NCBI GenBank assembly: GCA_017853435.1
Contig: JAFMJN010000002.1
Span: 1 to 45,541, forward strand
Source: Planctomycetota bacterium
GTDB lineage: Bacteria > Planctomycetota > GCA-002687715 > CAIWVZ01
DNA: 45,541 bases
Reading direction: 5' to 3'
The position numbers were made by a program, and so were the translations under genes. The notes below the pieces were generated by a model that saw only the letters and a program-made list of their open reading frames with translations, was not told where the DNA came from and did no database searches. How positions within the stretch are numbered: position 1 is the first letter of the stretch; each line of letters opens with the position of its first letter. Positions 20-14,821 of this stretch are shown here, one piece after another.

Positions 20-841
20 ATGAACGATCTCGTTTCCGTCATTACCCGCACGAAGGACCGTCACGCGTTTCTCGCCGATGCGGTGGGGAGCGTCGCGAAT
101 TCGACGTGGCGTCCCGTCGAGCACATCATCGTGAACGACGGTGGGGCCGACGTATCGGCCGTGGTGGCTCCCTATCGGGACCGCCTCGACATCAAGGTGA
201 TCGACACGCCCGGAGTCGGTCGTTGCAAGGCTGGGAACCTCGGACTCGCCGCGGCACGCGGTACCTACGTTCAATGGCTCGACGACGACGATCTTCTGTA
301 TCCCGACCACATCCGCTCGCTCGTGATGGAAGCGCGCAGAACCGGGCACAAGATCGTGTACTCCGACGCCGACGTGATCCACCAGACGCGGCTTCCGTCC
401 GGCGCCTATCGAGAGGTCTCGAGGACGCCCGCGCCGGTGTTCGAAGGAACGAAGATCGCGCTTTGGCGTCGCGGGGATCTGCATCTCGTCATGGTGCTTC
501 ACCACCGGGAATGCACCGACCGTCTCGGCGGTTTCGACGAGACGCTTCCCGTACTCGAAGACATGGAGATGTTCGGGCGTTTCGCTCAGGACTATCAGTT
601 CCATAGGCTCCCCGGAATCACCGCGGGGTTCCGCGTGCGGGACGACGCGACGAACGCCGTCACGGCGATGCGCACGGAATTCGCGGAGACGCGTGCCGTG
701 CTCTATCGCCGTTACGCGCACATCGTGATGCCGGAACTTCTGACGATGGTCGAATTCGGAGCGGTGGAACTCGCGGCGCTCAAGGCGCGTGTCGAGGCCC
801 TCGAAGCCGTCGTCCGCGAGTATCAGGACAAGCATCGATGA
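20..841 (+). CDS. Glycosyltransferase family 2 (GT-A fold)
   Basis: 273-aa ORF. GT2 N-terminal signature 'VSVITRTKDRHAFLADAVGSV...HIIVNDGG' and acidic DxD-type motif 'WLDDDDLLYPDH'. Short heptad-like C-terminal tail 'LAALKARVEALEAVV'. Stop overlaps the next start (ATGA, 838-841). Only 19 nt lie upstream, so the operon may start outside the window. Confidence 0.85.
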   Translation: MNDLVSVITRTKDRHAFLADAVGSVANSTWRPVEHIIVNDGGADVSAVVAPYRDRLDIKVIDTPGVGRCKAGNLGLAAARGTYVQWLDDDDLLYPDHIRSLVMEARRTGHKIVYSDADVIHQTRLPSGAYREVSRTPAPVFEGTKIALWRRGDLHLVMVLHHRECTDRLGGFDETLPVLEDMEMFGRFAQDYQFHRLPGITAGFRVRDDATNAVTAMRTEFAETRAVLYRRYAHIVMPELLTMVEFGAVELAALKARVEALEAVVREYQDKHR

Positions 842-1584
842 GTTTTCTGCGTCGCTTCGAACCCATCTACGGAGCCGATCGGTTCGTGCGCGGACCGTTG
901 ATGGTCGTGGCGCCGCATCCCGACGACGAGACCATCGGTGTCGGGGGATTGATCGCCGCGCACCGAGACGCGAATGTCCCGGTGACCGTGATCGTGCTCA
1001 CGGACGGGGCTCTCGGCATCCCGGGGACGCGGGCGGCGGAGGACTACGTGATGCTGCGCGAGCGCGAGACGCGCGCGGCCGCCGACGCTCTCGGCGGATT
1101 CGAGATGCGGTTCCTGCGATTTCCGGACGGGGGCTTGGCCGGGGCGCAGGGGGTGGACGCGGCGATCGCCGAGGCCGTTTCCGCATGTGCGCCGGCGACG
1201 ATTGCGTTCCCGTCGCCTTTCGAAGTGCATCCCGATCACGGCGCGGCGGCCTGGGCGACCTTGCGCGCCGCGCGCCTTTCGGGTTACGCGGGGCGGCTGC
1301 TCGCCTACGAGATCGGGGCCATGATGCCCGCGAACGTCCTTCTCGACATCACGCCGTGGAAAGAGCGAAAGGCACGGGCCGTCGCGGCCTACGCCTCGCA
1401 GCTCGTCCACATGGACATCGTCGGAAAGGTCGAAGGTCTGAATCGTGCGCGCACCGTGAATATTTCGGACCCCGCGGTCCGCGCCGCCGAGGCTTTCGCC
1501 GATATTCCACCCGACGGCATCGACGGTTATTGCGACGCCGTGGAACGCCTTTCACGCGACCTCGATCGCTGGATGCCGCTCTAG
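838..1584 (+). CDS. PIG-L/LmbE family N-acetylglucosaminyl deacetylase
   Basis: 248-aa ORF with the family motifs 'VVAPHPDDETIGVGG' and 'EVHPDHGAAA'. Start is translationally coupled to the upstream GT2. Confidence 0.85.
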   Translation: MSFLRRFEPIYGADRFVRGPLMVVAPHPDDETIGVGGLIAAHRDANVPVTVIVLTDGALGIPGTRAAEDYVMLRERETRAAADALGGFEMRFLRFPDGGLAGAQGVDAAIAEAVSACAPATIAFPSPFEVHPDHGAAAWATLRAARLSGYAGRLLAYEIGAMMPANVLLDITPWKERKARAVAAYASQLVHMDIVGKVEGLNRARTVNISDPAVRAAEAFADIPPDGIDGYCDAVERLSRDLDRWMPL

Positions 1585-1621
1585 GCGTCTTCGCTTCGGT
1601 TCGCGTGGTAGAGTTCCGCCG

Positions 1622-2671
1622 ATGGCGTCGGAACGTCCGGCGCCGCAACAGGTTGAGGAAGATTCCGGCATGTCCGTGACCGCACCGAGTTCAGCTCCCG
1701 GGTCATCCGTGGACGCGCCCCTTCCGCGGGGATCCTCCGGCATGGGCGAGGTCCGCGATCGTCGACTCGGCGTGACCGCGGTGATGACTTCCTTCAACAA
1801 GAAGGAGTTCGTTCGTCGCAACCTCGACGCGATCTTCGCGCAGACCGTGAAGTTCGACGCCGTCGTGGTCGTGGACAACGCGTCGACCGACGGGACCATC
1901 GACATGATCGCCGCGGACTATCCCGACGTGACGCTCGTGGTGATGCCGCACTCCGGTTACGGCGCGTGTGAGACCTTCAATCTCGGTTTCTCCACCGCGC
2001 GCACCGAACTCGTCGCGATTCTCGACGACGACGTGGAACTGCCTCCCGACTGGGTGGATCGGATGACGGCGCGCCTCGCGGCGGAGCCCGTGACGACGGC
2101 CATGGTGTCGTCGCACGTGTGGGAGCCGGGTACCCCCGATTGGTACATGACCCATCCGGAAGTTCTTCGAGAGCGTTACATGGCGACGTTCCGTGGATGC
2201 GCCACGCTCGCCCGCCGCGACGTGCTCGAAAAATGCGGCTGGTACGATCCGGACTTCTTCATCTACGGCAACGAACGCGATCTTTCGGCGCGCGTGCTGA
2301 ACCTCGGATGCAGGATTCTGCAGTTTCCGTCGGTCGTCGTGAAGCACGGCACGCCGTTCGGGATGAAACACGGCAAGCGCAGCCTCTACTACCACGTGCG
2401 TAATCTGTGGTGGTACCTCTTCAAGCACGTTCCGTGGGGGCAGGTGTTCGCCTTCCTCTTCGGTTTCCTGTGGCGTTCGGTGTTCGGTCGCAAGAAGGCG
2501 GCCGTGACGGACGCCGTGGGCACGATCGGCTTCTTTTCGACGGTGCGCGAGACCCCGGGTGGATGGTGGATCGTCGTGAAGGCCACCTTCGACGCCTTCA
2601 TGGGGCTCCCGAAGTGTCTCCGCAAGCGCGCCCCGTGTCGCGCCCCCGATTTCAGTCTCCCGTTGGGGTAA
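1622..2671 (+). CDS. Glycosyltransferase family 2, membrane-associated
   Basis: 349-aa ORF. 'VTAVMTSFNKKEFVRRNLDAIFAQT..VVVVDNASTDGT' plus DxD 'ILDDDVELP'. Hydrophobic C-terminal segments ('WWYLFKHVPWGQVFAFLFGFLW'). The first ~40 codons are low complexity, so the true start may be ATG 1670 or ATG 1742. Confidence 0.8.
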   Translation: MASERPAPQQVEEDSGMSVTAPSSAPGSSVDAPLPRGSSGMGEVRDRRLGVTAVMTSFNKKEFVRRNLDAIFAQTVKFDAVVVVDNASTDGTIDMIAADYPDVTLVVMPHSGYGACETFNLGFSTARTELVAILDDDVELPPDWVDRMTARLAAEPVTTAMVSSHVWEPGTPDWYMTHPEVLRERYMATFRGCATLARRDVLEKCGWYDPDFFIYGNERDLSARVLNLGCRILQFPSVVVKHGTPFGMKHGKRSLYYHVRNLWWYLFKHVPWGQVFAFLFGFLWRSVFGRKKAAVTDAVGTIGFFSTVRETPGGWWIVVKATFDAFMGLPKCLRKRAPCRAPDFSLPLG

Positions 2672-2673
2672 CC

Positions 2674-3744
2674 ATGACCGACGGGCCGTCCATGCACGGT
2701 GCGCGCGACGTCACGGTCGTGGTGACCACCCACAACGCGCGGGCGACGCTTCCCGCGACCGCGGCCTGCATTCGGAATCTTCGCGGAGTCGCCAAGGTCG
2801 TCGTCGTCGACAGCGGGTCCGCGGACGGGACACCTGAACTCGCGGCTTCGCTGTTTCCGGGCGCGCGGATCGAAGCGCTCGCGTCGAACGTCGGCCCGTG
2901 CGTCACTCGCAACATCGGACTCGCCGCGGCCGAAACCGCGCGCGTGCTTTTCGTCGACGACGACATGGGGTTCGAACCCGACATCGTCGAACGACTTTCG
3001 GCCGAACTCGACGCGCATCCCGACTGCGTCGCCGCCGGGCCGACGATCGTCTTCGACGACCGACCCGATGCGATCCAGTATGCGGGTGGCAGGATGCATT
3101 TCGGCGGACTTCCGCATCTCTACAGCCTCGGGGAGAAACCCGATCCGGCCGCGAAATCGCGTCGCGTCGACGTCTTGACCGCCGGGTGCCTTCTCGTCTC
3201 GCGCACGGCGGCCCTCGATGTCGGCGGATTCGACGAGCGCTTCTTCTACCTCGCCGAAGACGTCGATTTCGCGCTTCGTCTTCGCCACCGAGGCCATCAA
3301 CTTCTTCTCGTCGCGGGAGTGGTCGTTCGCAACGTCGGTGGTTCCGCCGCTCTGTCCTTGAAGGACGCCGAATATCCCGCGCGCCGTGTCGAACTGCACA
3401 GCCGCAATCGTTGGATGCTCATCGGTCGCGACTTCGATCGTTGGACCATCTTCGCGCTACTTCCCGCACTTCTCCTCTACGAGGCGGCGTGGGCGGCGTT
3501 CGCGACGATCACCGGGCATCTCGTGCCGTATCTTCGCGGCAAGGCGCGCGCGGTCGGTGCCCTGCGTGAAAAATCGGTTCTCCGCAGGCGCCGAAAAGTC
3601 GTCTCGGATCGGAAACTCATCGGGGCTCCGAAGATGACTTTTACGCGGACGGCGTTGGCGCAGGGTGGTGCGGACGCCGGTGCCGTCGCGCTCGACGGGT
3701 CGCTGCGTCTCATGTGGACGTGCCTCCGAGGACTCGTGCAGTGA
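2674..3744 (+). CDS. Glycosyltransferase family 2
   Basis: The track ORF 2407..3744 is trimmed to ATG 2674, 2 nt after the upstream stop. 'VTVVVTTHNARATL...VVVVDSGSADGT' and DxD 'LFVDDDMGFEPD'. C-terminal TM-like 'WTIFALLPALLLYEAAWAAFATI'. Confidence 0.8.
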   Translation: MTDGPSMHGARDVTVVVTTHNARATLPATAACIRNLRGVAKVVVVDSGSADGTPELAASLFPGARIEALASNVGPCVTRNIGLAAAETARVLFVDDDMGFEPDIVERLSAELDAHPDCVAAGPTIVFDDRPDAIQYAGGRMHFGGLPHLYSLGEKPDPAAKSRRVDVLTAGCLLVSRTAALDVGGFDERFFYLAEDVDFALRLRHRGHQLLLVAGVVVRNVGGSAALSLKDAEYPARRVELHSRNRWMLIGRDFDRWTIFALLPALLLYEAAWAAFATITGHLVPYLRGKARAVGALREKSVLRRRRKVVSDRKLIGAPKMTFTRTALAQGGADAGAVALDGSLRLMWTCLRGLVQ

Positions 3745-4658
3745 CGCTCCACGACGTTCACGTCGTCGTGCTGAACTGGAACGGCTACGGAGAGACGGAA
3801 GCGTGCGTCGCGGGGGTGATGGACGTCGCTCCCGACGTACGAATCCACATCGTCGACAACGGTTCGGAAGGCGACGAGGCGGGGCGACTCGCGCGTCGAT
3901 TCCCGGACGCGCGGATCGAATCCGTCGGTTTCAACGCGGGATTCGCCGGGGGCGTGAACCGCGGTATCGACGCGGCCCTCGCCGAGGGCGCGCGATTCGT
4001 GTTCCTTTTGAACAACGACGCGCGGATCGATGCGGGAACGCTTCCCGCGCTCCTCGACGCCGCCCGTCGCAGGCCGGATGTCGGCGTGTTCGGTCCGAGA
4101 ATTTGGCGCGATCGCGGGGCGGGAGTCTTGTGGTGTTGCGGCGTCGCCTTCGGGTTCGGTCCGAATCTCGGACGTCTGCGGGGTTTCGATCGTCGCGGCG
4201 ACGGTCTGTTCCTCGAGGAAGATGCCCCGGATTCGTTGACGGGCTGCGGCCTTCTCGTGCGGCGTGAGGTCTTCGATCGGATCGGCACCCTCGACGAAGC
4301 CTATTTCGTCTATCTCGAAGATGCGGACTTTTGTCTGCGCGCGCGCGAGGCCGGTTTCGGACTGCTCTACGTTCCGGGGGCGTCGATGGAACACCCGGGT
4401 GGTTGGTCGACAGGTGGGGGATACTCGCCGGGACGCAAGTACCTCACCGCGCACGGAGCCGTCCGCTTTTTGAAGCGTCACGGCACGTGGTCTCTGTGGG
4501 CGTCGTGGGTCGTCTTCGACGTGGTGCTTTGGCCCCTGTTGTTTCTTTCCGCGGGCGTCAGGGGGCGCGGGCGGGCGGCGTGGGCCAAGGCCCGCGGGAC
4601 GCTCGACGGACTTCTCGGTCGCCCTCCGAAGCCCCCCGCGTTAAAACCGCGGGCATGA
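3741..4658 (+). CDS. Glycosyltransferase family 2 (rhamnosyltransferase-like subgroup)
   Basis: The track ORF 3714..4658 probably starts at GTG 3741 (GTGA overlap with the upstream stop). 'VHVVVLNWNGYGET...IVDNGSEGDE', 'NAGFAGGVNRGI' and 'LLNNDARID'. Hydrophobic C-terminus 'WASWVVFDVVLWPLLFLSAG'. Confidence 0.8.
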   Translation: MTLHDVHVVVLNWNGYGETEACVAGVMDVAPDVRIHIVDNGSEGDEAGRLARRFPDARIESVGFNAGFAGGVNRGIDAALAEGARFVFLLNNDARIDAGTLPALLDAARRRPDVGVFGPRIWRDRGAGVLWCCGVAFGFGPNLGRLRGFDRRGDGLFLEEDAPDSLTGCGLLVRREVFDRIGTLDEAYFVYLEDADFCLRAREAGFGLLYVPGASMEHPGGWSTGGGYSPGRKYLTAHGAVRFLKRHGTWSLWASWVVFDVVLWPLLFLSAGVRGRGRAAWAKARGTLDGLLGRPPKPPALKPRA

Positions 4659-5998
4659 GGATCCTTCAGGTCGCCCACCAGTTGCCGCCCCGTTTCACGG
4701 CGGGCACCGAGGTGTACACCCTGCGACTGGCGAAGGCGCTCACCCGGCTTGGACACGACGTCCACCTGGTTTCCGGCGACGATTCCGGTGCGACACGTCC
4801 CGGAGCCCTTCGCGAGGGGACGATCGACGGCCTCCCACACACCTTCGTCGGGGTGGACCGCATCGCTTCGACCGCCGAGGAAACGCTTTTTCCGCCGGCG
4901 ACGCGGGGTGCGTTGAAGCCGCTCGTCGCCTCCTTCTCTCCCGACGTGATCCACGTGCAGCATCTGCGCCATCTCGGTCTCCACGTGTTCGACGGGGCTC
5001 CGCCCGTCCGTCGCGTCATGACGTTGCACGACCATTGGCTCGCGTGCGCGCGCGACGGGCAGCTTCTCGATGCCGCGGGGCAACCGTGTCCCGGGGCGAC
5101 CCCCGAACGGTGCCGTTCCTGTCTCGAGGGCTTTCGCTTCGGACTTGGACGCGGGGAGGCCGCCGTGGCGCGCATGCTGTCGCGCCTCGGAGTCCGTCCC
5201 GGATCCCCGGCGGCGCGCGGACTACGGTCGGGGGCGCTCGCGTTGCGTCGACTTCGGTCCACCGAATCCGGCAGGCCCTACGATCTCGAGGCGCGTCGCC
5301 GTGCGGTGTCGGACCTCGCCGCCGTGACCGATCGCTTCATCGCACCCTCGCGGCACGTCGCCGACGCCCTGACGGCGTTCGGGTTGCCCCCGGGCAAGAT
5401 GGTGGTGATTCCGCACGGGGTCGATGCCGACGTCGCCTTCCGTCCCGTTCCCGCGCCCGAGGGCGCTCCGCTGCGGATCGGTTACATGGGCACCGTCGCG
5501 CCGCCGAAGGGGCTCCATGTCCTCGTGGAGGCGTTTGCCCGTCTCGGTCGCGGGGTCGCGACGTTGCGCGTCCACGGACGCACGGATCTGCGCCCCGAGT
5601 ACGTCGCGTCGGTGGTCGGGGGAGGACTTCCCGCCGGAGTCACCATCGAAGGGGCCTTTCGCCCCGAGGAAGCCCCGCGTCGCCTCGCCGAAATCGACGT
5701 CCTCGTCGTCCCGTCGATTTGGCCGGAGAACCATCCGCTGACCATCGCCGAGGCCCTCGCCCATAGGGTCCCGGTCGTGGCGTCCGCGCTGGGCGGGATT
5801 CCCGAAATCGTGAAAGACGGCGTCAACGGTCGATTGGTGCCTCCGGGAGATCCCGAGGCCTTGGCCGAGGTTCTCCGGCGGTTGGCCCGCGACCGCGTCG
5901 AATTGGCGCGCCTCCGAGCGGGAATCACCCCCCCGGAATCGTTCTTGAGCCATGCCGCATCGGTAGTTGTGGCGTACGATACTCGCGAGGTTTCCTGA
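4655..5998 (+). CDS. Glycosyltransferase family 4 (GT-B, retaining type), Cys4-insert paralog 1
   Basis: The track ORF 4331..5998 is trimmed to ATG 4655 (ATGA overlap). 'MRILQVAHQLPPRFTAGTEVYTLRLAKAL', EX7E motif 'ENHPLTIAE', 'GGIPEIVKDGVNGRLVPPGD'. Carries 'TLHDHWLAC-x13-C-x7-CRSC'. Confidence 0.85.
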   Translation: MRILQVAHQLPPRFTAGTEVYTLRLAKALTRLGHDVHLVSGDDSGATRPGALREGTIDGLPHTFVGVDRIASTAEETLFPPATRGALKPLVASFSPDVIHVQHLRHLGLHVFDGAPPVRRVMTLHDHWLACARDGQLLDAAGQPCPGATPERCRSCLEGFRFGLGRGEAAVARMLSRLGVRPGSPAARGLRSGALALRRLRSTESGRPYDLEARRRAVSDLAAVTDRFIAPSRHVADALTAFGLPPGKMVVIPHGVDADVAFRPVPAPEGAPLRIGYMGTVAPPKGLHVLVEAFARLGRGVATLRVHGRTDLRPEYVASVVGGGLPAGVTIEGAFRPEEAPRRLAEIDVLVVPSIWPENHPLTIAEALAHRVPVVASALGGIPEIVKDGVNGRLVPPGDPEALAEVLRRLARDRVELARLRAGITPPESFLSHAASVVVAYDTREVS

Positions 5999-5999
5999 C

Positions 6000-7379
6000 A
6001 TGTCCGACGCGAGTCTCTACGACGCATCCCGCTACACGCCCGAGCAGATCGCGGCCTACAAGGCGGACAACGAGCGTCGCGTCCGAGAGGCCGCGAGCAA
6101 CGGCGACGCGTTCGTCGACGGTTTGCCCCTCAAAGTCACGCTCGAACTCACGGCGGACTGCAACCTCTATTGCCGCATGTGCGAGTTCCCGGTGCCGCGC
6201 GAACAAGGGCGTGGTCGGTACGACCTCCATATGCCCGTCGAGACCTTCCGGATGCTCGCGCCGCAAGTGTTTCCGCACGCGCGCATCGTGAACTTGACCG
6301 TGGTGGGGGAACCGTTGATGGTGCCCTATCTCGACGAGGTTCTCGAAGAGTGCGCCAAGTGGCAGACGCGCCTCGAACTCATCTCCAACGTCGTGCTGCT
6401 CGACGCTCCGATGTTGGCCAAAGTCGGTCCCCACCTCGGATGTCTGATCGTGTCCTTCGACGGCGGCACGCGCCGCACCTTCAACCGCATCCGCGTCGGC
6501 TCCGACTTCGAACAGGTTACGAGGAACATGTTGCGCTACGCGCGTTGGCGCGAATCGCTTCCGCCCGAACGTCGACCGGGGTTCCACCTCGCGGTGACCC
6601 TGATGAAGGAGAACGCGCACGAGTTGCCGACGATCATCAGGATCGCGAAGGCGCTCGGCGTCGATCTCGTTTCGGGCGCGTGGATGATCGCGTTCAACGA
6701 CAAGTTGGCCAATTCGTCGCTCTTGCGCCATCGTGCGCTCGCGAATCGCGCCTTGCGTGAAGCGCGCCGTGTCGCCGATGAGCTCGGCGTCCGCACCGCG
6801 TTGCCGGTCGATTTTCCGGACGTTTCGGACGAAGAGATCGCGGCGGTGTCCTTCGTGGAACCGTCGTTGCCGGACGGCCCACTTCCGCACCTCGCCGCGG
6901 CGTTGGCCGGAGGCCCCGTCGACGAAGCCCCCGTTGCCCTCGCGGAGGGCGACGTGCTCATCCCGCTTTCGGAGGTGGGCGGTCTCGGAGTCGACGAGCC
7001 CATCAAGGTGGCGGGGGATCCGGACGATCGCCGGGCACGATCGATGGCGTTCGCCGTCGCGCCCGCCGAACCGCCGCCTCCTTCCCTCGGACCGGACGGC
7101 AAGCCGCGCAACACGTGCAAGTTCCTCTGGAACGAATTGTTCGTGAACGTCTCCGGCGACGTCGCCCCGTGTTGCATCCAAGGGCGTCCCGTCGTCGGCA
7201 ACACTCACGCGACGAATCTTTCGGAGATTTGGAACAACGCGCCCATGCGCGAGATGCGCCAGAGGCTCCTCGACGGGGATCCGATTCCCTGTTGCAAGGA
7301 TTGCAACTACAACACGCAGCTCGGGCAGGGGAACTATCGGGAAGACACGTACTTCATCGATCTCGATCGCCGACTATGA
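6000..7379 (+). CDS. Radical SAM enzyme with C-terminal SPASM/twitch-like Cys cluster
   Basis: The track ORF 5967..7379 probably starts at ATG 6000, 1 nt after the upstream stop. CX3CX2C 'CNLYCRMC' at nt 6159-6182. 'VVGEPLM' SAM-binding-like motif. C-terminal 'CKFLWNELFVNVSGDVAPCC...PCCKDC' (nt 7116-7304) fits CX13GX4C plus CX2C. A ~100-aa Pro/Ala/Gly/Asp-rich insert (nt ~6810-7110) separates the two parts. Confidence 0.8.
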   Translation: MSDASLYDASRYTPEQIAAYKADNERRVREAASNGDAFVDGLPLKVTLELTADCNLYCRMCEFPVPREQGRGRYDLHMPVETFRMLAPQVFPHARIVNLTVVGEPLMVPYLDEVLEECAKWQTRLELISNVVLLDAPMLAKVGPHLGCLIVSFDGGTRRTFNRIRVGSDFEQVTRNMLRYARWRESLPPERRPGFHLAVTLMKENAHELPTIIRIAKALGVDLVSGAWMIAFNDKLANSSLLRHRALANRALREARRVADELGVRTALPVDFPDVSDEEIAAVSFVEPSLPDGPLPHLAAALAGGPVDEAPVALAEGDVLIPLSEVGGLGVDEPIKVAGDPDDRRARSMAFAVAPAEPPPPSLGPDGKPRNTCKFLWNELFVNVSGDVAPCCIQGRPVVGNTHATNLSEIWNNAPMREMRQRLLDGDPIPCCKDCNYNTQLGQGNYREDTYFIDLDRRL

Positions 7380-7404
7380 CGGTGCGGGGAGCGAGATGCG
7401 GTAA

Positions 7405-10400
7405 GTGAGAGCGGGAGAAGGGGTGGGGGCGAAGGGGAAGCGGAAGATCCTGCATGTCGTACACGGCTTTCCTCCGGAATGCCGTGGCGGGACGGAATCC
7501 GTGGTCGCTCGGGTCGCCGAGGCCCAAGCCGCGCGCGGGCACGCCGTCACGGTGCTCTTCGGGACGATGCAGGTCGGAGAGGCGACGACCCTCGAACGCG
7601 TGGACGGTCCGATAGCGGGAGTGACCCACCTGCGTCTACGAAAGTCCGGGCTCTTCGTCGATCAATGGGATCGATCGGACGACTCCGAAGCGCTCGATTT
7701 GATCGCACGGTCGGAAGCCGCCGACGCCGACGTCGTGCACGTCCATCAGTGGATTCGCCTGACGCGTCATTTGGTGCGCTGGGCGCGCTCGCTCGGAAAA
7801 ACCGTGTGCGTCACCCTTCACGACGCCACGGTGTCGTGTCCCATCGCGTTCCGCGTGCGCGAGGACGGACTCTGCCGCAAGGATCCTGGATCCTCGTCGT
7901 GTTTCGGTTGCGCGCCGACTCCGTTCGGGATGGACGAAACGACGTGTCGCGACGCGCTCGACGTCTTCGTCGCCGATATGCGCGCGGAAGTCGCCGCCGC
8001 GGATGCCGTCGTCGTCCCGACCCGCGCCCATGCGGCGTTTCTGGCTCCGTGGTTGCCCGCGGAAGTGCGGCCGATCGTGGTGGCGCACCCGTCGCTCGAG
8101 TCGGCGCCTCGCCGCGTGCATTCGTCGACCGTACCCGCCGACAGCCCCATCCGCGTCTTGCATTTCGGTCATCTGAACGACGTCAAGGGGGTTCCACTGC
8201 TCTACGAAGCGATGGGCCTCCTCGCGCCGTCGGTTCGTTCCGCGTTGCGCCTCGACGTTTACGGGACGGCGGCGGATCCACGGATGCGTGCGCGGCTCGA
8301 CGCTCTCAAGAGCGGATTGCCGATCTACGAGCACGGACCGTATGTGCCTTCCGAACTTGACGGCGATCGTCACGACGTCGTCGTGATCCCGTCTCGAGCT
8401 TCCGAATCGTGGAGCTTCGTCCTCGACGAAGCGTTCGCGATGAGCCTGCCCGCGATCGTCCCGGCGTGCGGGGCTCTCGAGGAACGCATCGGCGCCGCCG
8501 GCTTCGTTTATCCCCCCGATTCCGTCGAGGGGCTCGCGTCGATTCTCGAAATGCTCGTGCGTGACCGTTCGCAACTCGATCGCGCGCGCGCATCGATTCC
8601 CGGCGACCGCGGTGTCGAGACCCACGTCGATGCTCTCGACGTCGTCTACGGAGACGCGCGTCCCAAGGCGCCGATCGCCGAGCCGGGGCTTTGGGCGGGA
8701 CTCGAGCGACGCTCCCGCGCCGCGTTGCGACGTGCCTCGATGTCGATCGTCGAAGCACGAGGTCGCGTGGACGCGGAGATCGTCCGTTACGACGATTTGT
8801 TCGCGAATTTCAAAGCCGCGGAAGCGGGTGTCTCCGAAGCCCGTTCCGAAATCTCGCGCCTCGGTACGGTGCTCGACGGATTCAGGGAATCCGTCCGTCA
8901 GTACGCCGCGCGCTGCACGGAACTCGAAAAGTGGGTCGCGAGTCTGCGCGAAGGGACGGAAGACGGGGGGCGCTCCGTCGATCGGCTTCTCGAACTCGAA
9001 CGCACGTTGAATGGCGTGGAAGCCGCACTCGCGGATCGCGAGGGGGAACTCCGGATCGCGGAACGGCGTCTCGAATTCGAGACCGCGCGGGCAACCGAGT
9101 CCTCCGTCCGCGCGGAGGCCGAATCTCGCCGTGCCGAGACCGAAGTCTTCGCCCGCCATGACGTCGAAAGGACGCTCCACGCCGCCCTCGCGTCGACGGC
9201 GGATCTCGCCCGACGTTTGGTCCGTGTGGAGGCGGATGCGAGACTCGCGTCCGATGCCCTGCGCGTGGAGCGTGCGGCGCGTCGCGACGTCGGCGAACTC
9301 GTCGGCCACCTCGAAGGGGACCTCCGAGCGCTGCGTTCGGTGATCGCGAAACAGGAACGCGAAGTCGTCGAGCGCGCCGCGGACATCGAACTTCTCACGA
9401 CGTCGCAGCGCGCGTTGTCGGCGCGGCTCGAATCACTCGCTCGTGAGGCGATCGCGAAGGACGCGGATCTCGCTCGCGCTTTCCATCGCGAATCCGAATT
9501 GAAGGACGTTTTGGCGTTCTCGGAACGCCGACGGCGCGACGTTTCGGACGTTGTCGCGGCGGAGAGAGCGACGGCATCGAGTCTCCAGGCGCGCGTATCC
9601 GCCGACGCCGCACGCATCCGACACCTCGAGTCGGTCGTCCGAGAAACGAAGGCCGAGGCCGATGCGGCGCGCGCTCTGTACGACGGGCTGCGGGCCGAAA
9701 CGAACCACGAACGGGAACGCGTGATTCGTTCGGAAGAGATCCTCGGCGCCGCTTTCGATGGTGAACGTCTCGATCCGGAATCGGCGTCCGCCTGGGCGCG
9801 CAAACACGCCGAAGCGGTTGCGGAACTCGACGCCCTTCGACGCGCGATCGTCGAGGACCGGGGGGCGTCCGCGGCGCTGAAGGCCCGTGTTTCGACCACG
9901 TCGCGGCGTCCGAAGGTGTTGTTCGTCGTTCACGATTTTCTGCCGTATCACGCAGCGGGTTCGGAGATCTACACCTATCAGCTCGCGAAGGCGCTGTCGA
10001 AGCACGTCGACGTCCATTTGGCCTTCTGCGAAAATCGTCCCGAACGGCCGCAGTACGAGACGCGCGAAGGAACGTTCGACGGCCTCCCGTTCACGGAAGT
10101 CGTGCATCACGATGCGTTCCCGACGTTCGGCGCCACCTACGAAGATCCGGAAATGGATCGCGTCTTCGACGGGATTCTTCGCCGCGTACGCCCCGACGTC
10201 GTGCACGTGCAGCATCTCAAGTTCTGGGGGCTCGGTGTCCTCGGTCGAGCGCGGAAGGCGGGGTGCCGCGTCTTCTATACCCTTCACGAGTACATGGCGA
10301 TCTGTCCGCGAGACGGCCAGATGCGAAGGCCGGACGGCGAACGGTGCGAACTTCCCGTTCCGTCGACCTGCGCCGATTGCATCACGCACGTGGCGTTGTC

Positions 10401-11286
10401 GCGAAGTTCCGCGGGGCGTCTCGCAGGTTCGGTGTTGCGTCGCGCCGTCGAGGCGGCGCCCGACGCCTTGAAGGAGGTCGGTAATCGGGTCGCCCGTCGA
10501 TGGGCGATTCGTGGAGCGTCGCCCGGGTCGCATTCCGAGCGCGAAGCGGCGATTCGCAACCGTCTTTCGACCACGCAGGAGGCGTTTCGCGCGGTGGACA
10601 TGTTCTTCGCGCCGAGTCGGTTTCTTCGCGAACGATTCCTCGCCTCCGGCATCGTGCCGTCCGATCGGATCGTTTGGTCTCCCTACGGACAAGACGTCGA
10701 GCGGTTCCCGAAACATCCCAAAACCCCTTCGGAACGACTTCGCGTCGGCTACCTCGGCACCATTTCCTCCTACAAGGGGCTCGGCGTACTCATCGAGGCG
10801 CTCGAAGCGTTGTCCGCCTATCCCGTCGAAGGGCGCATTCACGGGGCCCTCGAAATTTTCCCCGACTACACGGCTCATTTGCGTGCGACGATCCGCAACC
10901 CGCGCATCGCTCTTCTCGGAAGGTTCGACAACCGCGACGTCGCGCGACTGCTCGCCGACATCGACGTGCTCGTCGTCCCGAGTCTGTGGTGGGAGAATGC
11001 TCCCTTGACCATCCACGAAGCCTTTCTTTCGAAGACGCCCGTGGTCACCTCGGACATCGGGGGCATGAAGGAATTGGTTCAGCATGGGGTGAACGGACTG
11101 CACTTCAAAGCGGGAGACGCTGCGGATCTCGCTTCGGTCCTTCGAAGCTTGGCGCTCGATCGCGCCTCGCTGCGGACCCTGGAGCCCGATCCGTCGATCG
11201 TGCGTGATATCCGTGAAGATGCACTTTCGATGCTCGCTCGGTACTCGGCCGCGGTGTCCGCATCGTCCGAGAGAGCCTTCGCATGA
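7405..11286 (+). CDS. Giant bifunctional glycosyltransferase: GT4 module - ~400-aa coiled coil - GT4 module
   Basis: Uninterrupted 1293-aa ORF (GTG 7405; GTG 7423 is an alternative start). The N-terminal module has 'KILHVVHGFPPECRGGTES' and EX7E 'ESWSFVLDE'. The C-terminal module has 'PKVLFVVHDFLPYHAAGSEIYTYQLAKAL', EX7E 'ENAPLTIHE' and 'GGMKELVQHGVNGLHFKAGD'. The central part (nt ~8700-9900) is A/R/E/L/D-rich, heptad-like, and holds a single proline. Confidence 0.85.
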   Translation: MRAGEGVGAKGKRKILHVVHGFPPECRGGTESVVARVAEAQAARGHAVTVLFGTMQVGEATTLERVDGPIAGVTHLRLRKSGLFVDQWDRSDDSEALDLIARSEAADADVVHVHQWIRLTRHLVRWARSLGKTVCVTLHDATVSCPIAFRVREDGLCRKDPGSSSCFGCAPTPFGMDETTCRDALDVFVADMRAEVAAADAVVVPTRAHAAFLAPWLPAEVRPIVVAHPSLESAPRRVHSSTVPADSPIRVLHFGHLNDVKGVPLLYEAMGLLAPSVRSALRLDVYGTAADPRMRARLDALKSGLPIYEHGPYVPSELDGDRHDVVVIPSRASESWSFVLDEAFAMSLPAIVPACGALEERIGAAGFVYPPDSVEGLASILEMLVRDRSQLDRARASIPGDRGVETHVDALDVVYGDARPKAPIAEPGLWAGLERRSRAALRRASMSIVEARGRVDAEIVRYDDLFANFKAAEAGVSEARSEISRLGTVLDGFRESVRQYAARCTELEKWVASLREGTEDGGRSVDRLLELERTLNGVEAALADREGELRIAERRLEFETARATESSVRAEAESRRAETEVFARHDVERTLHAALASTADLARRLVRVEADARLASDALRVERAARRDVGELVGHLEGDLRALRSVIAKQEREVVERAADIELLTTSQRALSARLESLAREAIAKDADLARAFHRESELKDVLAFSERRRRDVSDVVAAERATASSLQARVSADAARIRHLESVVRETKAEADAARALYDGLRAETNHERERVIRSEEILGAAFDGERLDPESASAWARKHAEAVAELDALRRAIVEDRGASAALKARVSTTSRRPKVLFVVHDFLPYHAAGSEIYTYQLAKALSKHVDVHLAFCENRPERPQYETREGTFDGLPFTEVVHHDAFPTFGATYEDPEMDRVFDGILRRVRPDVVHVQHLKFWGLGVLGRARKAGCRVFYTLHEYMAICPRDGQMRRPDGERCELPVPSTCADCITHVALSRSSAGRLAGSVLRRAVEAAPDALKEVGNRVARRWAIRGASPGSHSEREAAIRNRLSTTQEAFRAVDMFFAPSRFLRERFLASGIVPSDRIVWSPYGQDVERFPKHPKTPSERLRVGYLGTISSYKGLGVLIEALEALSAYPVEGRIHGALEIFPDYTAHLRATIRNPRIALLGRFDNRDVARLLADIDVLVVPSLWWENAPLTIHEAFLSKTPVVTSDIGGMKELVQHGVNGLHFKAGDAADLASVLRSLALDRASLRTLEPDPSIVRDIREDALSMLARYSAAVSASSERAFA

Positions 11287-13544
11287 AGGTTCTCATGCTG
11301 ACGATGGGATTGCCGCCCGCCTCTCGCGGTGGGACGGAAGTTCACGTCATGGGGCTCGCTCGGGCTCTGCGTCGACGCGGAGATCGGGTGGTGTTGGCCT
11401 GTCGCGAATCGGCGGAAGGACGGACGCCTTTCTCGGTCCGTCGGGAAGCGCTCGACGGTTTCGATGTGTATCGGATGGCCTACGACTTCCATGACGCGAC
11501 GTCGTATCGCGCCATTCATGAACATCCTTCGATCGACGCCGCTCTCGAGGGGGTGGTGGATGCCGTCGCGCCCGACGTCGTCCATATCCATCACTTCAGT
11601 TGCCTGTCGACGTCGTTCCTCGATCGACTCCATGCGCGCCGTATCCCGACGGTCGTGACGCTGCACGATCACTGGCTCCCGTGTCCGCGGGGACAGCGAA
11701 TCACCCCCGAACTCGAAATTTGTGAAACTCTCGATCGAAACCGCTGCGCCACTTGTCTCGGCGCCTTGTGGCCGCATTTCGACGTCGGGCCCAAGGTGCT
11801 CGAAGAGGCCGACACGCGTCTGTTGCGGCGTTTGAATCGTGTCGATCTCCTTATCGCACCTTCCGAGTTTCACGCGCGACGCATGATCGAATGGGGACTC
11901 GACCCCGCGTTGGTGCGCGTCGTCGTGCACGGACTCGAATCGGACGGCTACGAAGCCGTCAGGCGACGCCGGTCGGGCGTTCGCGTCGTCGGCTTTCTGG
12001 GCAGCGTCATTCCGTCGAAGGGGGTTCACGTCCTGATCGAGGCGTGGAAGCGCCTCGGGCGAACCGACATCGAACTCGTCGTTCACGGCGAAGCACCGAC
12101 GTTCCACGGGCGAGACGGGTACGTCGACGGTCTCCGTGCCGCGTGCGACGGTCTTCGGGTGCGGTTCGCGGGAGCCTACGAACCGGCGGATGTCCCGCGC
12201 CTTCTGCGGGGTATCGACGTCCTCGTCGTGCCTCCCGTGTGGTGGGAGTCGTTCTGCCTCACGGCGCGCGAAGCGTTTCTTGCCGGCGTTCCGGTGGTCG
12301 CCTCCGGACACGGGGCGTTGCTCGAAGCCTTCGAGGACGGGAACGGCGGACGGTTCTTTCCCCCCGGCGATGTGGAGGCGTTGGCGGCGACACTCGCGGA
12401 TCTCATCGACCACCCCGAGCGTCACGAGGCTCTCGCGGCTTCCGTTCCCGCCGTACGAAGCATCGCGGAGTGCGCCGACGAGACCTCGCGTCTTTACGCG
12501 TCCGTCGCGGCGGCGCGTCGTCATCGAGAGGCGCTCGATGGAAGCGACGCGCTTGGACTGCTCGGCCCCGACGCGACCGCGACGCCGTACTGCACGGTGT
12601 TCATTCCGACGTGGAACGGGTTGCCCGAACTATCGGGAGTCTTGGCGAAACTCGTCGTCCAGCGCACGCCGTTCCCGTTCGAGATCCTCGTGATCGATTC
12701 CGGTTCGACCGACGGAACTCTCGAACTTCTGGCCGAATATCCGTCGATTCGCGTGATCCGCATCCCGAATTCCGAGTTCAATCACGGTACGACGCGCAAT
12801 CGCGGCGTCGCCGAGGCACGCGGTGAGATCGTCGCCTTGTTGACGCAGGATGCGGAGCCCGTCGACGATCGATGGCTCGCCCGTCTCGTCGGGAACTTTT
12901 CCGATCCCCGAGTCGCGGGGGTCTATTGCTCGCAGCGACCGCGTCCCGACTGCGACCCTTTCGCGCGGGATCGGTTGAAGGACTGGACCGCGGAGTCCGG
13001 GCCACCCGTCGTGCAGGGGCCGGTGACGCCCGAAGCGTTCGAAAGCATGACGCCGTGGGAGCGGTATCTGGTGTCGCGCTTCGACGACGTCGCGAGTTGC
13101 GTGAGGAAATCGGCCATGGTCGAGGTTCCTTACGCGCGTCGTCAGTTCGGAGAAGACGTCGAGTGGGGGAAACGTGCCGTCCTCGCCGGATGGAAGATCG
13201 TGAACGACCCCGGCTCCGTGGTGATTCACTCGCACACGTCTCCGGTGCTCTACGAATTCAAGCGCGTTTATCTCGACCATCAAAATCTTCACGAGCTCTT
13301 CGGTCTGCACACGTTGCCGCGCTGGACCGACGTTCCTTTGTGTGCGGTGCGTTACTTCCTTCATCTGCTCCCCGTCGTTTGGCGCGACGACCGGGACGTC
13401 GCCTTCAAACTTTGGTGGACGTTGAAATTGCCGCTGTACGCGTTCACCCAAAATCTCGCGCAATGGCTCGGCGCGAAGTCCGTCGCGTGGAAGCGCGACG
13501 GTCGGCATCGTTGGGTGGACGCCTTGCTTCGGAAATCGGTGTGA
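11283..13544 (+). CDS. Bifunctional glycosyltransferase: N-terminal GT4 fused to C-terminal GT2
   Basis: 753-aa ORF with an ATGA overlap to the upstream gene. GT4 part: 'MKVLMLTMGLPPASRGGTEVHVMGLARAL', EX7E 'ESFCLTARE'. GT2 part from nt ~12585: 'YCTVFIPTWNGLPEL...ILVIDSGSTDGT', 'FNHGTTRNRG', 'LLTQDAEP'. Confidence 0.85.
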   Translation: MKVLMLTMGLPPASRGGTEVHVMGLARALRRRGDRVVLACRESAEGRTPFSVRREALDGFDVYRMAYDFHDATSYRAIHEHPSIDAALEGVVDAVAPDVVHIHHFSCLSTSFLDRLHARRIPTVVTLHDHWLPCPRGQRITPELEICETLDRNRCATCLGALWPHFDVGPKVLEEADTRLLRRLNRVDLLIAPSEFHARRMIEWGLDPALVRVVVHGLESDGYEAVRRRRSGVRVVGFLGSVIPSKGVHVLIEAWKRLGRTDIELVVHGEAPTFHGRDGYVDGLRAACDGLRVRFAGAYEPADVPRLLRGIDVLVVPPVWWESFCLTAREAFLAGVPVVASGHGALLEAFEDGNGGRFFPPGDVEALAATLADLIDHPERHEALAASVPAVRSIAECADETSRLYASVAAARRHREALDGSDALGLLGPDATATPYCTVFIPTWNGLPELSGVLAKLVVQRTPFPFEILVIDSGSTDGTLELLAEYPSIRVIRIPNSEFNHGTTRNRGVAEARGEIVALLTQDAEPVDDRWLARLVGNFSDPRVAGVYCSQRPRPDCDPFARDRLKDWTAESGPPVVQGPVTPEAFESMTPWERYLVSRFDDVASCVRKSAMVEVPYARRQFGEDVEWGKRAVLAGWKIVNDPGSVVIHSHTSPVLYEFKRVYLDHQNLHELFGLHTLPRWTDVPLCAVRYFLHLLPVVWRDDRDVAFKLWWTLKLPLYAFTQNLAQWLGAKSVAWKRDGRHRWVDALLRKSV

Positions 13545-14821
13545 GGCCGCGCGCCCTTTTTGTCGGACACGTCCCGCCCGACGCCCGTGGCGGTGGGGTC
13601 GGCAATCACATGGGCGAAGCGGCCCGCGCGGTTTCGGATCTTTTCGAGATCTCATGGTTCACGCGCGGGTCCGATGGTTCGGGTGATGATCTCGCGGTTT
13701 CGGAGGAGACCTTGTTCGAGGGTGGTCGCGCTTTCGTGTTTGCCCATCGCGGCGTGCGGGGGACGTCGTTTCGAGAACGGACGCGATTCGAGCCCGCGGA
13801 GGCGGCGTTCGATCGCGTGCTCCGCTCCGTCCGTCCCGATGTCGTTCATATTCATCATTGGTCGTGGCTGTCGTCCGGCATGGCCGCGGCGGCCCGCGCC
13901 TTCGGGGCCCGCGTCGTCCTTACGCTGCACGACCATGTCGCGACGTGCCCGCGGGGGAGGCGCTATCGACCGGACGACGTCGTTTGCGAGACGGTCGTGC
14001 CCGAGACGTGTGCGGCGTGCGTCGTTCCGCGGTGGATCGAAGCGGTGCGGAATCCCGATTCGAAGGCGCGCGCGATCGTCCGCGCCTTGTTCGGTCGAAG
14101 CGAAGATCTTCGCCTTCTCGCGGAGCGCGAACGTCGGATCTTGGACATGTTGGCGTCGGCCGATGCGATCGTTTTTCCGTCGGAGGACGCGCGTCGACGT
14201 TGTGCCGAGCGGTTCGGATCCCTTTCCGATCGGATGCGGGTGATTCCCCCCGTTTGGAAGCGCCCCCTTTCGGCTCCGCCTCGGCGTCCCGACGGAGCGG
14301 TGTTTCGCGTCGGACTTCTCGGCGATCCCGCCTTCGCGAAGGGGATCGTTCCCGCGGCACGCGCGATCGCTGGATGCGAGCGTCCGACGTCGCTGGACGT
14401 TTGGGGAGAGCCGAGCGCGCACGTCGCGGGGGTGCTCTCCGCCGCCGCGCCGGGCCACGTTCGGTGGCGGGGTCGCTACACCCCCGATACGCTCGGCGAC
14501 GTCATGGCGACGCTCGACGCGGTCGTGGTTCCGTCGCTTTGGCCCGAGACCTTCGGCATCGTCGCGCGTGAAGCGGCCGCCTACGGGCGTCCGGTGATCG
14601 TGAGCGCGATCGGGGGACTCGCCGACGCCGTGGTGCGTGGCGTGGCCGTCGGCGTCCCCCCCGGCGATGTCCATGCGCTGCGTGCGGCGATCGACGCGCT
14701 TCCTTCGGGTTCCGATCCGATCGCCGTCCCGTCCGGGGTCGATGCGGAATGGTGCGAAGGTCGCGACGGGCTTCGGGCTCTCTACGCGGACCTCGTCGTC
14801 GGTGGTAAGACGGGGGCATGA
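13541..14821 (+). CDS. Glycosyltransferase family 4, Cys4-insert paralog 5
   Basis: The track ORF 12872..14821 is trimmed to GTG 13541 (GTGA overlap). 'RALFVGHVPPDARGGGVGNHMGEAARAV', 'VVHIHHWSW', 'TLHDHVATC-x12-C-x7-CAAC', EX7E 'ETFGIVARE'. Confidence 0.8.
   Translation: MRPRALFVGHVPPDARGGGVGNHMGEAARAVSDLFEISWFTRGSDGSGDDLAVSEETLFEGGRAFVFAHRGVRGTSFRERTRFEPAEAAFDRVLRSVRPDVVHIHHWSWLSSGMAAAARAFGARVVLTLHDHVATCPRGRRYRPDDVVCETVVPETCAACVVPRWIEAVRNPDSKARAIVRALFGRSEDLRLLAERERRILDMLASADAIVFPSEDARRRCAERFGSLSDRMRVIPPVWKRPLSAPPRRPDGAVFRVGLLGDPAFAKGIVPAARAIAGCERPTSLDVWGEPSAHVAGVLSAAAPGHVRWRGRYTPDTLGDVMATLDAVVVPSLWPETFGIVAREAAAYGRPVIVSAIGGLADAVVRGVAVGVPPGDVHALRAAIDALPSGSDPIAVPSGVDAEWCEGRDGLRALYADLVVGGKTGA

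Follow-up and report, generated by a model that had tools for sequence, protein, structure and literature searches.

A radical SAM/twitch enzyme encoded in a conserved Planctomycetota glycosyltransferase operon, with a proposed role in carbohydrate tailoring

The radical SAM enzymes BlsE, BtrN and DesII act on sugars or sugar-like small molecules. BtrN acts on a sugar-like amine, in a pathway that includes a GT4 glycosyltransferase and a PIG-L-type deacetylase. To our knowledge, almost all characterised sugar-acting radical SAM enzymes come from antibiotic pathways.

Two types of C-terminal domain are relevant for comparison. A twitch domain has three or four conserved cysteines and one auxiliary [4Fe-4S] cluster, whereas a full SPASM domain has seven or eight, including a CX2CX5CX3C motif, and two auxiliary clusters (PMC9477430). 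The SPASM/twitch maturases SkfB, SuiB, CteB, PqqE and anSME fall in SFLD subgroup 17 within Megacluster-1-1 (PMC9477430), the superfamily branch to which the enzyme described here also belongs.

The DNA analysed here, referred to as the window, is a stretch of 45,541 nucleotides from a Planctomycetota bacterium. It encodes a predicted twitch-type enzyme that is a fixed component of a large glycosyltransferase operon and comes from a family of thousands of sequence clusters; its members turn up in polysaccharide loci of several phyla, and some are glycosyltransferase fusions. No study of this radical SAM family was found in the literature on polysaccharide, O-antigen or Planctomycetes glycan clusters. 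Overall, the outcome is a well-supported annotation and a testable hypothesis, with no demonstrated new mechanism.

The radical SAM gene and its core

The gene and the features of its core are as follows.

6000 to 7379, forward strand: radical SAM/twitch enzyme gene, 459 aa (translation, Pfam Radical_SAM and SPASM, homologs, AF2 model)
6126 to 6809, forward strand: radical SAM partial-barrel core, aa 43-270, including G103-E104-P105, S152, D154 and R165 (invariant columns, AF2, alignment with the BlsE core at E 6.8e-17)
6159 to 6182, forward strand: CX3CX2C motif (CNLYCRMC; C54, C58, C61), SAM-binding [4Fe-4S] site (read from the sequence)

The reading frame starts at ATG 6000, in agreement with the N-termini of orthologs. 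Homolog searches returned 64 proteins, one of them at 98% identity, and the AF2 model has a pLDDT of 86 and a pTM of 0.87. An antisense ORF at the same place (5925-7208, 427 aa) was taken as a high-GC artefact, with all homolog and domain support on the forward-strand frame.

C54, C58 and C61 lie exactly where an earlier, sequence-only reading of this DNA had placed the CX3CX2C motif. They show no variation in 62 homologs and occur in about 150 of 150 aligned units of the family. The Pfam Radical_SAM (PF04055) score of the window protein is marginal, at 31.7 bits against a gathering score of 29.5. In the AF2 core, strands and helices alternate in a manner that fits a partial (beta/alpha)6 barrel, and a Foldseek search with the model gave 92 matches at E ≤ 0.001; among the matches listed, all are radical SAM enzymes. 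Taken together, motif, profile score and fold confirm at the level of sequence and model that the protein belongs to the radical SAM superfamily, and cleavage of SAM is predicted.

Searches against solved structures were then compared. A PDB profile search placed BlsE first (6.8e-17) and BtrN second (1.9e-16), and Foldseek placed DesII at the top (7.5e-11), followed by BlsE (3.6e-09). The solved enzymes share 11-18% identity with the window protein, with TM-scores of 0.42-0.5, and SkfB, SuiB and CteB fall only slightly below the sugar enzymes in Foldseek (RiPP and protein maturases at E 1e-08 to 4e-06).

Linker and twitch domain

Downstream of the core, the following features were assigned.

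6810 to 6929, forward strand: aa 271-310, N-terminal part of the "insert", folded and conserved, GPLPHL at nt 6876-6893 (ortholog conservation, AF2)
6930 to 7094, forward strand: variable linker, probably disordered, aa 311-365, P/A/G/D-rich (pLDDT, ortholog variation, composition)
7110 to 7346, forward strand: twitch domain, aa 371-449 (Pfam SPASM, BtrN alignment, conservation counts)
7116-7118, 7170-7172, 7293-7295 and 7302-7304, forward strand: putative auxiliary-cluster ligands C373, C391, C432 and C435, respectively (BtrN register)
7173-7175, forward strand: C392, an extra invariant cysteine (conservation counts)
7290-7292, forward strand: C431, not conserved

An atypical, probably disordered insert of about 100 aa, rich in Pro, Ala, Gly and Asp, had been proposed to split the core from the cysteine-rich tail. 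The composition was borne out, with P, A, D or G at 53 of the 100 residues encoded at nt 6810-7110. The extent of disorder was overstated: aa 271-310 have block-mean pLDDT values of 89-97, and pLDDT falls below 50 for aa 314-350 only, staying low to about aa 370. Nor is the insert unusual: orthologs as a group carry it, with linkers of 103-169 aa that vary in both sequence and length; at 113 aa, that of the window protein is near the short end. Judged from the model, the disordered insert is some 50 aa long and the linker is typical of its group.

The cysteine tail reads C373-x12-G386-x4-C391-C392 ... C431-C432-x2-C435 (nt 7116-7304), with the coordinates as first claimed, and the Pfam SPASM model matches aa 373-436 with 50.1 bits (E 3.4e-13). 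The sequence-only reading had treated loss of the auxiliary cysteines in orthologs as grounds for abandoning its proposal; instead, C373, C391, C432, C435 and also C392 are each invariant across 62 homologs. In the wider family, the SAM-motif cysteines and the five twitch cysteines are 85-100% conserved (164 units), the four twitch cysteines are kept in 146-151 of about 150 family units, and only these five are conserved within the domain. Of the two CC pairs in the tail, the first holds, C392 being invariant, and the second does not: relatives have V, Y or A in place of C431, and only 37 of 164 family units have a cysteine there.

The domain had been described as a partial SPASM/twitch domain. 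It is indeed truncated and of the twitch kind, but because no cysteine lies downstream of C435 in the protein and the second SPASM cluster motif, CX2CX5CX3C, is missing, it is a twitch rather than a partial SPASM domain. By sequence, the C-terminal domain is therefore of twitch type, with one auxiliary cluster predicted, and not a full SPASM.

Glycosyltransferase operon, wider family and class of substrate

The portion of the operon lying within the window, with its members, is listed here.

20 to 19086, forward strand: conserved operon, portion within the window (Pfam, tblastn synteny in 12 species loci, UbiA and TM checks)
20-841, forward strand: GT2 (Pfam)
838-1584, forward strand: PIG-L deacetylase (Pfam)
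1622-2671, forward strand: GT2 (Pfam)
ending at 3744, forward strand: GT2 (Pfam)
3714-4658, forward strand: GT2 (Pfam)
4655 to 5998, forward strand: upstream GT4 glycosyltransferase, probable start ATG 4655, Cys4 insert at nt 5027-5122 (Pfam, start-codon check, motif scan)
7405 to 11286, forward strand: downstream 1293-aa double GT4 with a long helical spacer and Cys4 inserts at nt 7819-7911 and 10285-10380 (Pfam, translation, motif scan)
11283-13544, forward strand: GT4-GT2 (Pfam)
13541-14821, forward strand: GT4 (Pfam)
14818-16917, forward strand: PF01663 alkaline-phosphatase-family membrane protein (Pfam)
16914-17450, forward strand: small protein with 4 TM segments (TM check)
ending at 18151, forward strand: DUF92 (Pfam)
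18148-19086, forward strand: UbiA, operon member

As had been read from the sequence, the flanking GT4 genes are 1 nt and 25 nt away: the upstream stop codon ends at 5998, and the double-GT4 gene starts at GTG 7405. The upstream GT4 gene shares 4 nt with the start of the radical SAM gene in ortholog loci L001 and L002. Each of the 12 species-level Planctomycetota genomes with an ortholog has it within the same ~19-kb operon, with a GT4 gene immediately upstream in 12 of 12 loci and the double GT4 and GT4-GT2 genes downstream in the 11 of 11 loci with enough sequence. The position of the radical SAM gene after GT4 is fixed and translationally coupled. The operon extends beyond the upstream edge of the window in L001, L002 and L010. 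A 731-aa ORF at 18168-20363 was rejected as a spurious Arg-rich frame, the real gene there being UbiA.

Every GT4 module of the window operon carries a Cys4 insert. Co-occurrence of the Cys4-GT4 family with the radical SAM gene, a check put forward in the sequence-only reading, was found in 12 of 12 ortholog loci. Outside the phylum, it was also found in two loci in which the homolog lies inside a GT4 run: L040 (Bacteroidota-like) and L041 (Omnitrophota, an ABC-transporter O-antigen-type locus). Homologs are also present in L042-L044 and L006, with neither Cys4-GT4 nor a PF01663 gene, and in L043 the homolog adjoins an epimerase and a cytidylyltransferase. This context sample beyond the ortholog group comprises 8 loci and is not random.

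The wider family comprises 4774 clusters at E ≤ 1e-30; a second, word-indexed homolog search, made with the broad alignment, returned almost only the same Planctomycetota set. No curated NCBIfam model came near its cut-off for the window protein or 98 sampled family members. Among relatives, P0080 is a GT4 followed by a radical SAM/twitch unit, matching the gene order of the window operon, and P0113 joins a radical SAM/twitch unit to two GT2 modules (31% identity over aa 36-441). Further relatives carry sulfotransferase, methyltransferase or class III aminotransferase modules. The nearest Planctomycetota paralog clade, at 33-40% identity (17 loci), showed no operon homologs within 10 kb by tblastn, even at E 1e-4, and an adjacent sugar gene in 0 of the 2 loci with Pfam-labelled neighbours.

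The sequence-only reading had started from the premise that enzymes of this kind usually mature peptides or proteins, which does not apply to this branch. A RiPP maturase whose precursor is encoded elsewhere in the genome, with the operon position reflecting glycosylation of that peptide, would be consistent with the Pfam SPASM match and with a possible peptide context in the distant homologs P0231 and P0232, which have two GT2-PqqD fusion genes and a 37-aa ORF nearby. Against it, no precursor ORF of at least 20 aa fits in either flanking gap, as had been claimed, the listed small ORFs all being inside or antisense to large genes. The search also covered the neighbourhood just beyond the window, another check proposed at the outset: no precursor gene was found in 12 syntenic loci extending 10 kb on each side, nor any called small gene in the 20-kb syntenic stretches of L001 and L002. 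The window protein gave no PqqD or RRE Pfam match, and with only 44 aa ahead of the first core strand, modelled as a long helix and a short one, there is no room for an RRE. None of the known peptide-modifying subfamilies fits, with NCBIfam scores far below their cut-offs (StsB 38.5 against 625, PqqE 29.2 against 381, mycofactocin 26.7 against 265, AlbA 17.1 against 850), and only one auxiliary cluster is predicted. We regard a RiPP role as highly improbable.

Many SPASM/twitch enzymes mature proteins, and the operon's own proteins could be targets, either through crosslinking or oxidation at the GT4 Cys4 loops or through anSME-like maturation of the PF01663 protein. The Foldseek matches include anSME and the twitch thioether synthase SkfB (1.2e-08, the lowest rmsd of the full-length matches), and Cys4-GT4 modules accompany the radical SAM gene in every ortholog locus as well as in L040 and L041. 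The anSME-like variant was rejected: the C/S-x-P-x-R formylglycine motif is absent from the PF01663 protein, which reads QSPVSW at the nucleophile region, and anSME requires the full 7-Cys SPASM that is missing here. As for the Cys4 loops, the GT4 module of P0080 has no Cys4 insert, and the homologs in L042-L044 and L006 occur apart from both supposed targets; the absence of a peptide-binding RRE also argues against protein maturation, to which we give only a small chance.

The end of the operon, with UbiA, DUF92 and membrane proteins, raises a further alternative, namely that the enzyme modifies the lipid carrier, polyprenyl or other, on which the UbiA, DUF92 and 4-TM proteins would act; the profile search also gave a weak match to an archaeal tetraether synthase, 7tol (5.9e-4). 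The gene, however, is 11 kb away from UbiA and surrounded by genes for soluble GT4 enzymes, and no TM segment was found in its product. In other phyla, GT genes still neighbour the homologs while UbiA and DUF92 do not, and the fusion partners are GT and sulfotransferase modules, with no lipid enzymes. We consider action on a lipid very unlikely.

A sugar or glycan substrate, by comparison, is indirectly supported by the conserved synteny, by the GT4 and GT2 fusions and by the sugar-acting nature of the closest solved structures. We lean towards the view that the enzyme tailors a carbohydrate and not a peptide, most likely a sugar residue of an intermediate built by the neighbouring GT4 enzymes.

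Proposed chemistry and comparison with known systems

The substrate sugar may be lipid- or nucleotide-linked, possibly carrying GlcN produced by the PIG-L deacetylases of the operon. The SAM cluster would cleave SAM to give the 5'-deoxyadenosyl radical, which would abstract hydrogen from a carbon of the sugar. In the route that we prefer, C392 would donate a hydrogen back to the opposite face, so that the epimer forms in the manner of HygY and NeoN; the twitch cluster would re-reduce the resulting thiyl radical. The role of C392 as hydrogen donor is inferred by analogy, and epimerisation, though preferred over BtrN-like oxidation, is put forward tentatively, as a possible but doubtful outcome.

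Alternatively, the radical could pass an electron to the twitch cluster and give a keto-sugar, as in BtrN. The substrate class would be the same, and C392 would then be a structural residue or an alternative cluster ligand. The twitch aligns with that of BtrN, and class III aminotransferases, to which some relatives are fused, require a keto substrate. However, the aminotransferase-adjacent unit of the tandem proteins P0070 and P0071 lacks the second cysteine (PCS, SCG), like BtrN (PCF), while the other unit keeps PCC; the window protein, too, keeps the second cysteine. This correlation has two or three examples. By Pfam, the operon also contains no aminotransferase or ketoreductase, and we consider the dehydrogenase outcome unlikely. 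Other sugar chemistry, such as dehydration, decarboxylation or deamination, appears less likely again. C-methylation, one of the options originally listed, is improbable, with no B12-binding domain (PF02310, no match at E ≤ 0.01) or other methylase module. Finally, the enzyme might be a physical partner of Cys4-GT4 and perform radical chemistry on the growing glycan, at the level of the polymer or the lipid-linked intermediate, either stereoinversion of an incorporated residue or formation of a non-glycosidic C-C or ether bond joining sugars; we judge this rather improbable.

If a sugar were epimerised or oxidised during glycan assembly, radical chemistry would join the toolkit for diversification of bacterial surface glycans, and could account for unusual sugars where the usual nucleotide-sugar enzymes are absent. 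The residues after the twitch hairpin, PCC as opposed to PC(F/S/G), might then predict epimerase or dehydrogenase activity. Should the chemistry take place on the growing glycan itself, it would represent a widespread "radical glycan tailoring" module in Planctomycetota, Omnitrophota, Bacteroidota and others.

Several described systems can be set beside the window enzyme. Both BlsE (cytosylglucuronate decarboxylase, 7vob) and DesII (TDP-4-amino-4,6-dideoxyglucose deaminase, 8hzv) use radical SAM chemistry on nucleotide or nucleoside sugars. They share 15-17% identity with the window protein, at TM-scores of 0.42-0.58; the BlsE sequence match covers the core only (aa 45-177), and with the BlsE model TIGR04466 the protein reaches 27.6 bits, where the cut-off is 400. 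The SPASM/twitch maturases work on RRE-bound or defined protein-motif substrates and most have two auxiliary clusters, whereas the window enzyme has no RRE and no precursor, with one cluster predicted. The uncharacterised NCBIfam family NF033640 (N_Twi_rSAM) resembles it in the twitch, where window aa 371-449 match model positions 3-83 with 83.6 bits, below the cut-off of 170, and 98 of 98 sampled family members match this model; the twitch is N-terminal to the core in NF033640 but C-terminal in the window protein.

HygY (hygromycin B) and NeoN (neomycin) are twitch sugar epimerases that act on amino-sugar units with a cysteine thiol as hydrogen donor, and are likened here by description, not by sequence. 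NeoN uses Cys249 (PMC10991966), and loss of the donor cysteine turns HygY into a dehydrogenase, going by a title cited in the same paper. The invariant extra cysteine of the window protein may be comparable to these donors; the substrates of HygY and NeoN are small pseudo-oligosaccharide antibiotics.

In BtrN (2-deoxy-scyllo-inosamine dehydrogenase of the butirosin pathway, PDB 4m7t), the core is likewise followed by a C-terminal, one-cluster twitch, with its four twitch cysteines in register with the CX17C...CX2C of the window protein. BtrN has 250 aa and no long linker, compared with 459 aa here (13% identity by Foldseek), and a Phe (PCF) at the site of the family's invariant C392. It belongs to an antibiotic pathway, whereas the window enzyme is encoded in a glycosyltransferase operon.

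The radical SAM gene and its twitch domain

The gene, both of its cysteine motifs and its spacing to the flanking glycosyltransferase genes were all found where the sequence-only reading had placed them:

6000-7379, + strand: radical SAM/twitch gene, 459 aa, ORF from ATG 6000
6159-6182, + strand: CNLYCRMC (C54/C58/C61), read in the sequence
7116-7304, + strand: C-terminal C373-x12-G-x4-C391-C392 ... C431-C432-x2-C435, read in the sequence

A longer start at TTG 5967 is disfavoured, as ortholog N-termini disagree with it. The Pfam match to Radical_SAM, at 31.7 bits, narrowly clears its gathering threshold (29.5); SPASM scored 50.1 bits (E = 3.4e-13). With the GT4 stop on the 5' side at 5998 and the double-GT4 start on the 3' side at 7405, the gaps are 1 and 25 nt; as had been claimed of precursor-like genes, no ORF of at least 20 aa fits in either. 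An AlphaFold2 model (pLDDT 86, pTM 0.87; 62-sequence alignment as input) places only 44 aa, one long and one short helix, before the first core strand, too short a stretch to hold a RiPP recognition element. A RiPP maturase with its precursor encoded far away is considered very improbable.

Across 62 homologs, C54, C58, C61, C373, C391, C392, C432 and C435 are invariant and C431 varies. From the wider family, 146 representative clusters supplied a sample of 164 radical SAM units, with residues present per column as denominators; Cys was found at C373 in 151/153 units, C391 in 150/154, C392 in 130/153, C432 in 150/150 and C435 in 146/148, and at the C431 position in only 37 units of the 164-unit set. 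The auxiliary cysteines on which the sequence-only reading depended are thus conserved in both sets. No Cys lies downstream of C435 in the window protein, and the second SPASM cluster motif is therefore absent. The family profile aligned the C-terminal domain with the twitch domain of BtrN, a sugar-acting radical SAM enzyme (stretch E = 9.3e-9), where C373, C391 and the C432-x2-C435 pair match BtrN Cys positions; BtrN has Phe in place of C392. A twitch domain is defined by 3-4 Cys and one auxiliary cluster (PMC9477430), and by that definition the C-terminal domain is, from its sequence, a twitch domain with one predicted auxiliary cluster. Of the proposed radical SAM enzyme with a partial SPASM/twitch domain, the radical SAM and twitch parts stand and SPASM is dropped.

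The Pro/Ala/Gly/Asp-rich disordered insert of ~100 aa, described as atypical, was examined on the A259-C373 stretch. Its presence and composition hold (P/A/D/G, 53/100 residues), but predicted disorder covers only ~50 aa: pLDDT <50 is confined to aa 314-350, low confidence extends to ~aa 370, and aa 271-310, conserved in orthologs and containing GPLPHL, fold with high confidence. The stretch measures 113 aa in the window protein versus 103-169 aa across the ortholog group, so the insert is a hallmark of that group, not a peculiarity of the window gene. In the wider family the median is 55 aa, and 14/149 units have at least 113 aa.

Tight, conserved coupling to GT4 genes

The operon runs from the 5' edge of the window to ~nt 19086, with mostly tight junctions (short overlaps or gaps <40 nt):

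5' part, + strand (Pfam): GT2, PIG-L deacetylase, three GT2, GT4, then the radical SAM gene
After the radical SAM gene: double GT4, GT4-GT2 fusion, GT4
14818-19086, tail: PF01663 alkaline-phosphatase-family protein (3 TM), 4-TM 178-aa protein, DUF92, UbiA
18148-19086: UbiA prenyltransferase, from its ATG
5027-5122, 7819-7911, 10285-10380, 11664-11756, 13928-14020: Cys4 inserts, each after a 'TLHD' strand

A 731-aa ORF at 18168-20363 was rejected as a spurious Arg-rich frame overlying the UbiA gene. Within the 1293-aa double GT4 (7405-11286), translation revealed a ~400-aa A/R/E-rich spacer (~aa 430-830) between the GT4 modules, probably a coiled coil, which recalls the 'molecular ruler' spacers of some polysaccharide-assembly enzymes.

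With each species represented by one genome, the scan for orthologs gave 12 Planctomycetota loci (50-98% identity), all from MAGs, whose labels are unreliable. A GT4 gene lies directly upstream of the radical SAM gene in 12/12 loci, overlapping it by 4 nt in L001 and L002, and the double GT4 and GT4-GT2 genes follow in all 11 with enough sequence; the complete gene order is preserved as far as contigs reach. Locus L007 (CAMARR010000001.1; locus GC 58%) holds the whole operon, with a radical SAM gene 86% identical; its MAG label, 'Candidatus Kuenenia stuttgartiensis', looks unreliable, and the same may apply to those of L025 ('Singulisphaera sp.') and L027 ('Luminiphilus sp.'). In L001 and L002 the operon reaches past the window's 5' edge, with a ~400-aa unknown protein, PIG-L and GT4. 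The ~400-aa protein, product of the operon's first gene (L001:556-1806, L002:716-1909, L010:412-1971; L001 and L010 copies 40% identical), matches Radical_SAM weakly (23 bits), contains 'VVGLPGE', lacks CX3CX2C and matched no PDB sequence; from its sequence it looks radical-SAM-like, with the cluster lost.

The Cys4 insert HD..W..CPRGQ...C...CxxC, probably a zinc ribbon, is present in all GT4 modules of the operon. The suggested co-occurrence of enzyme and Cys4-GT4 was borne out in three phyla, since the GT4 genes adjoining the radical SAM gene in the distant loci L040 (Bacteroidota-like; inserts at 1271 and 2599) and L041 (Omnitrophota; 9951) share the insert, and their E-values against the window double GT4 are 8e-64 and 8e-72. 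It is not universal: the insert is absent from the GT4 module of the fusion protein P0080 and from loci L042-L044. That the enzyme matures one of the operon's proteins is unlikely, as relatives of it exist without Cys4-GT4 and the PF01663 protein lacks a formylglycine motif. The operon tail suggests a lipid-phosphate-linked donor or carrier and loosely resembles polyprenyl-phosphoribose systems (PMC11127046). Modification of a lipid carrier, tied to UbiA and DUF92, is likewise held to be improbable, because relatives retain GT genes, not UbiA.

Wider family and its glycan contexts

An exhaustive HMM search at E<=1e-30 returned 4774 clusters (50% identity), with full-length members 26-38% identical to the window protein. 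The sequence-only interpretation is partly supported and made more precise: the protein is a radical SAM enzyme of the twitch type, from a widespread, uncharacterised family associated with glycan gene clusters. Fusions and loci in the wider family include:

P0080: GT4, then a radical SAM/twitch unit, in the order of the window genes
P0113: radical SAM/twitch unit, two GT2 modules, TPR
P0087: TPR, two radical SAM/twitch units, sulfotransferase
P0125: sulfotransferase, two radical SAM/twitch units, methyltransferase
P0070, P0071: two radical SAM/twitch units, class III aminotransferase
L040: GT4-GT4-rSAM-GT4-GT4-GT2, then DegT, NeuB
L041: ABC2/Wzt transporter, GT2, three group-1 GTs (one bearing a GT4 N-domain), rSAM (4-nt overlap), GT4, Wzy_C
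L043: rSAM, NAD-epimerase, cytidylyltransferase
L044: GT2/GT4 block, with rSAM in divergent orientation
L006: epimerase, GT2, methyltransferase, rSAM, PMT_2
L042: tandem rSAM units near GT4, two GT2-PqqD fusions, 37-aa ORF

In a small, non-random sample with Pfam-labelled neighbours, selected on the length of the contigs, 6/8 non-ortholog contexts were sugar-related. A second Planctomycetota (paralog) clade (33-40% identity, 17 loci) had no operon-gene homologs within 10 kb at any of the 17, and an adjacent sugar gene in 0/2 loci with Pfam-labelled neighbours. Tandem repeats of 2-3 radical SAM/twitch units are common (P0067, P0070, P0071, P0073, P0084, P0088, P0094, P0100, P0130), some with a class III aminotransferase or B12-binding radical SAM module. 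Two tandem distant homologs with two GT4 genes nearby occupy L042:8001-16922, on an Omnitrophota metagenome contig, a possible glycosylated-RiPP locus.

Candidate substrate and chemistry

The PDB profile search ranked BlsE (6.8e-17) and BtrN (1.9e-16) ahead of CteB, PqqE, viperins, SuiB and SkfB; Foldseek with the model gave DesII (7.5e-11) and BlsE (3.6e-09), then SkfB, SuiB, CteB, viperin, PqqE, anSME and BtrN. Sugar- or sugar-nucleotide-acting enzymes head both rankings, a mild lean to carbohydrate substrates; at 11-18% identity and TM-scores of 0.42-0.5, these relatives support placement in a branch and do not give a functional assignment. No NCBIfam family came near its cut-off for the window protein or 98 sampled family members. 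On balance, a carbohydrate substrate of some kind is rather probable. Glycan tailoring is a clear hypothesis open to an accessible assay.

Judged by its residues, the protein has all that SAM cleavage and one auxiliary cluster would require, and an invariant extra Cys (C392) beside the predicted cluster ligand C391. The 5'-deoxyadenosyl radical would take hydrogen from a sugar carbon of an operon intermediate. In an epimerisation of the HygY and NeoN kind, C392 would give hydrogen back on the opposite face; by a title cited in PMC10991966, mutation of its single Cys makes HygY a dehydrogenase, and according to PMC10991966 itself NeoN uses Cys249. In an oxidation, the sugar radical would instead lose an electron via the twitch cluster to yield a keto-sugar, as in BtrN. 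The P0070 and P0071 units adjacent to the aminotransferase lack the second Cys (PCS, SCG) and the other unit is PCC, a weak hint at an epimerase/dehydrogenase split. By this analogy an epimerase is a tentative possibility and a dehydrogenase a more doubtful one, because the window protein keeps PCC, like the other unit, whereas BtrN, with PCF, resembles the aminotransferase-adjacent units in lacking the second Cys.
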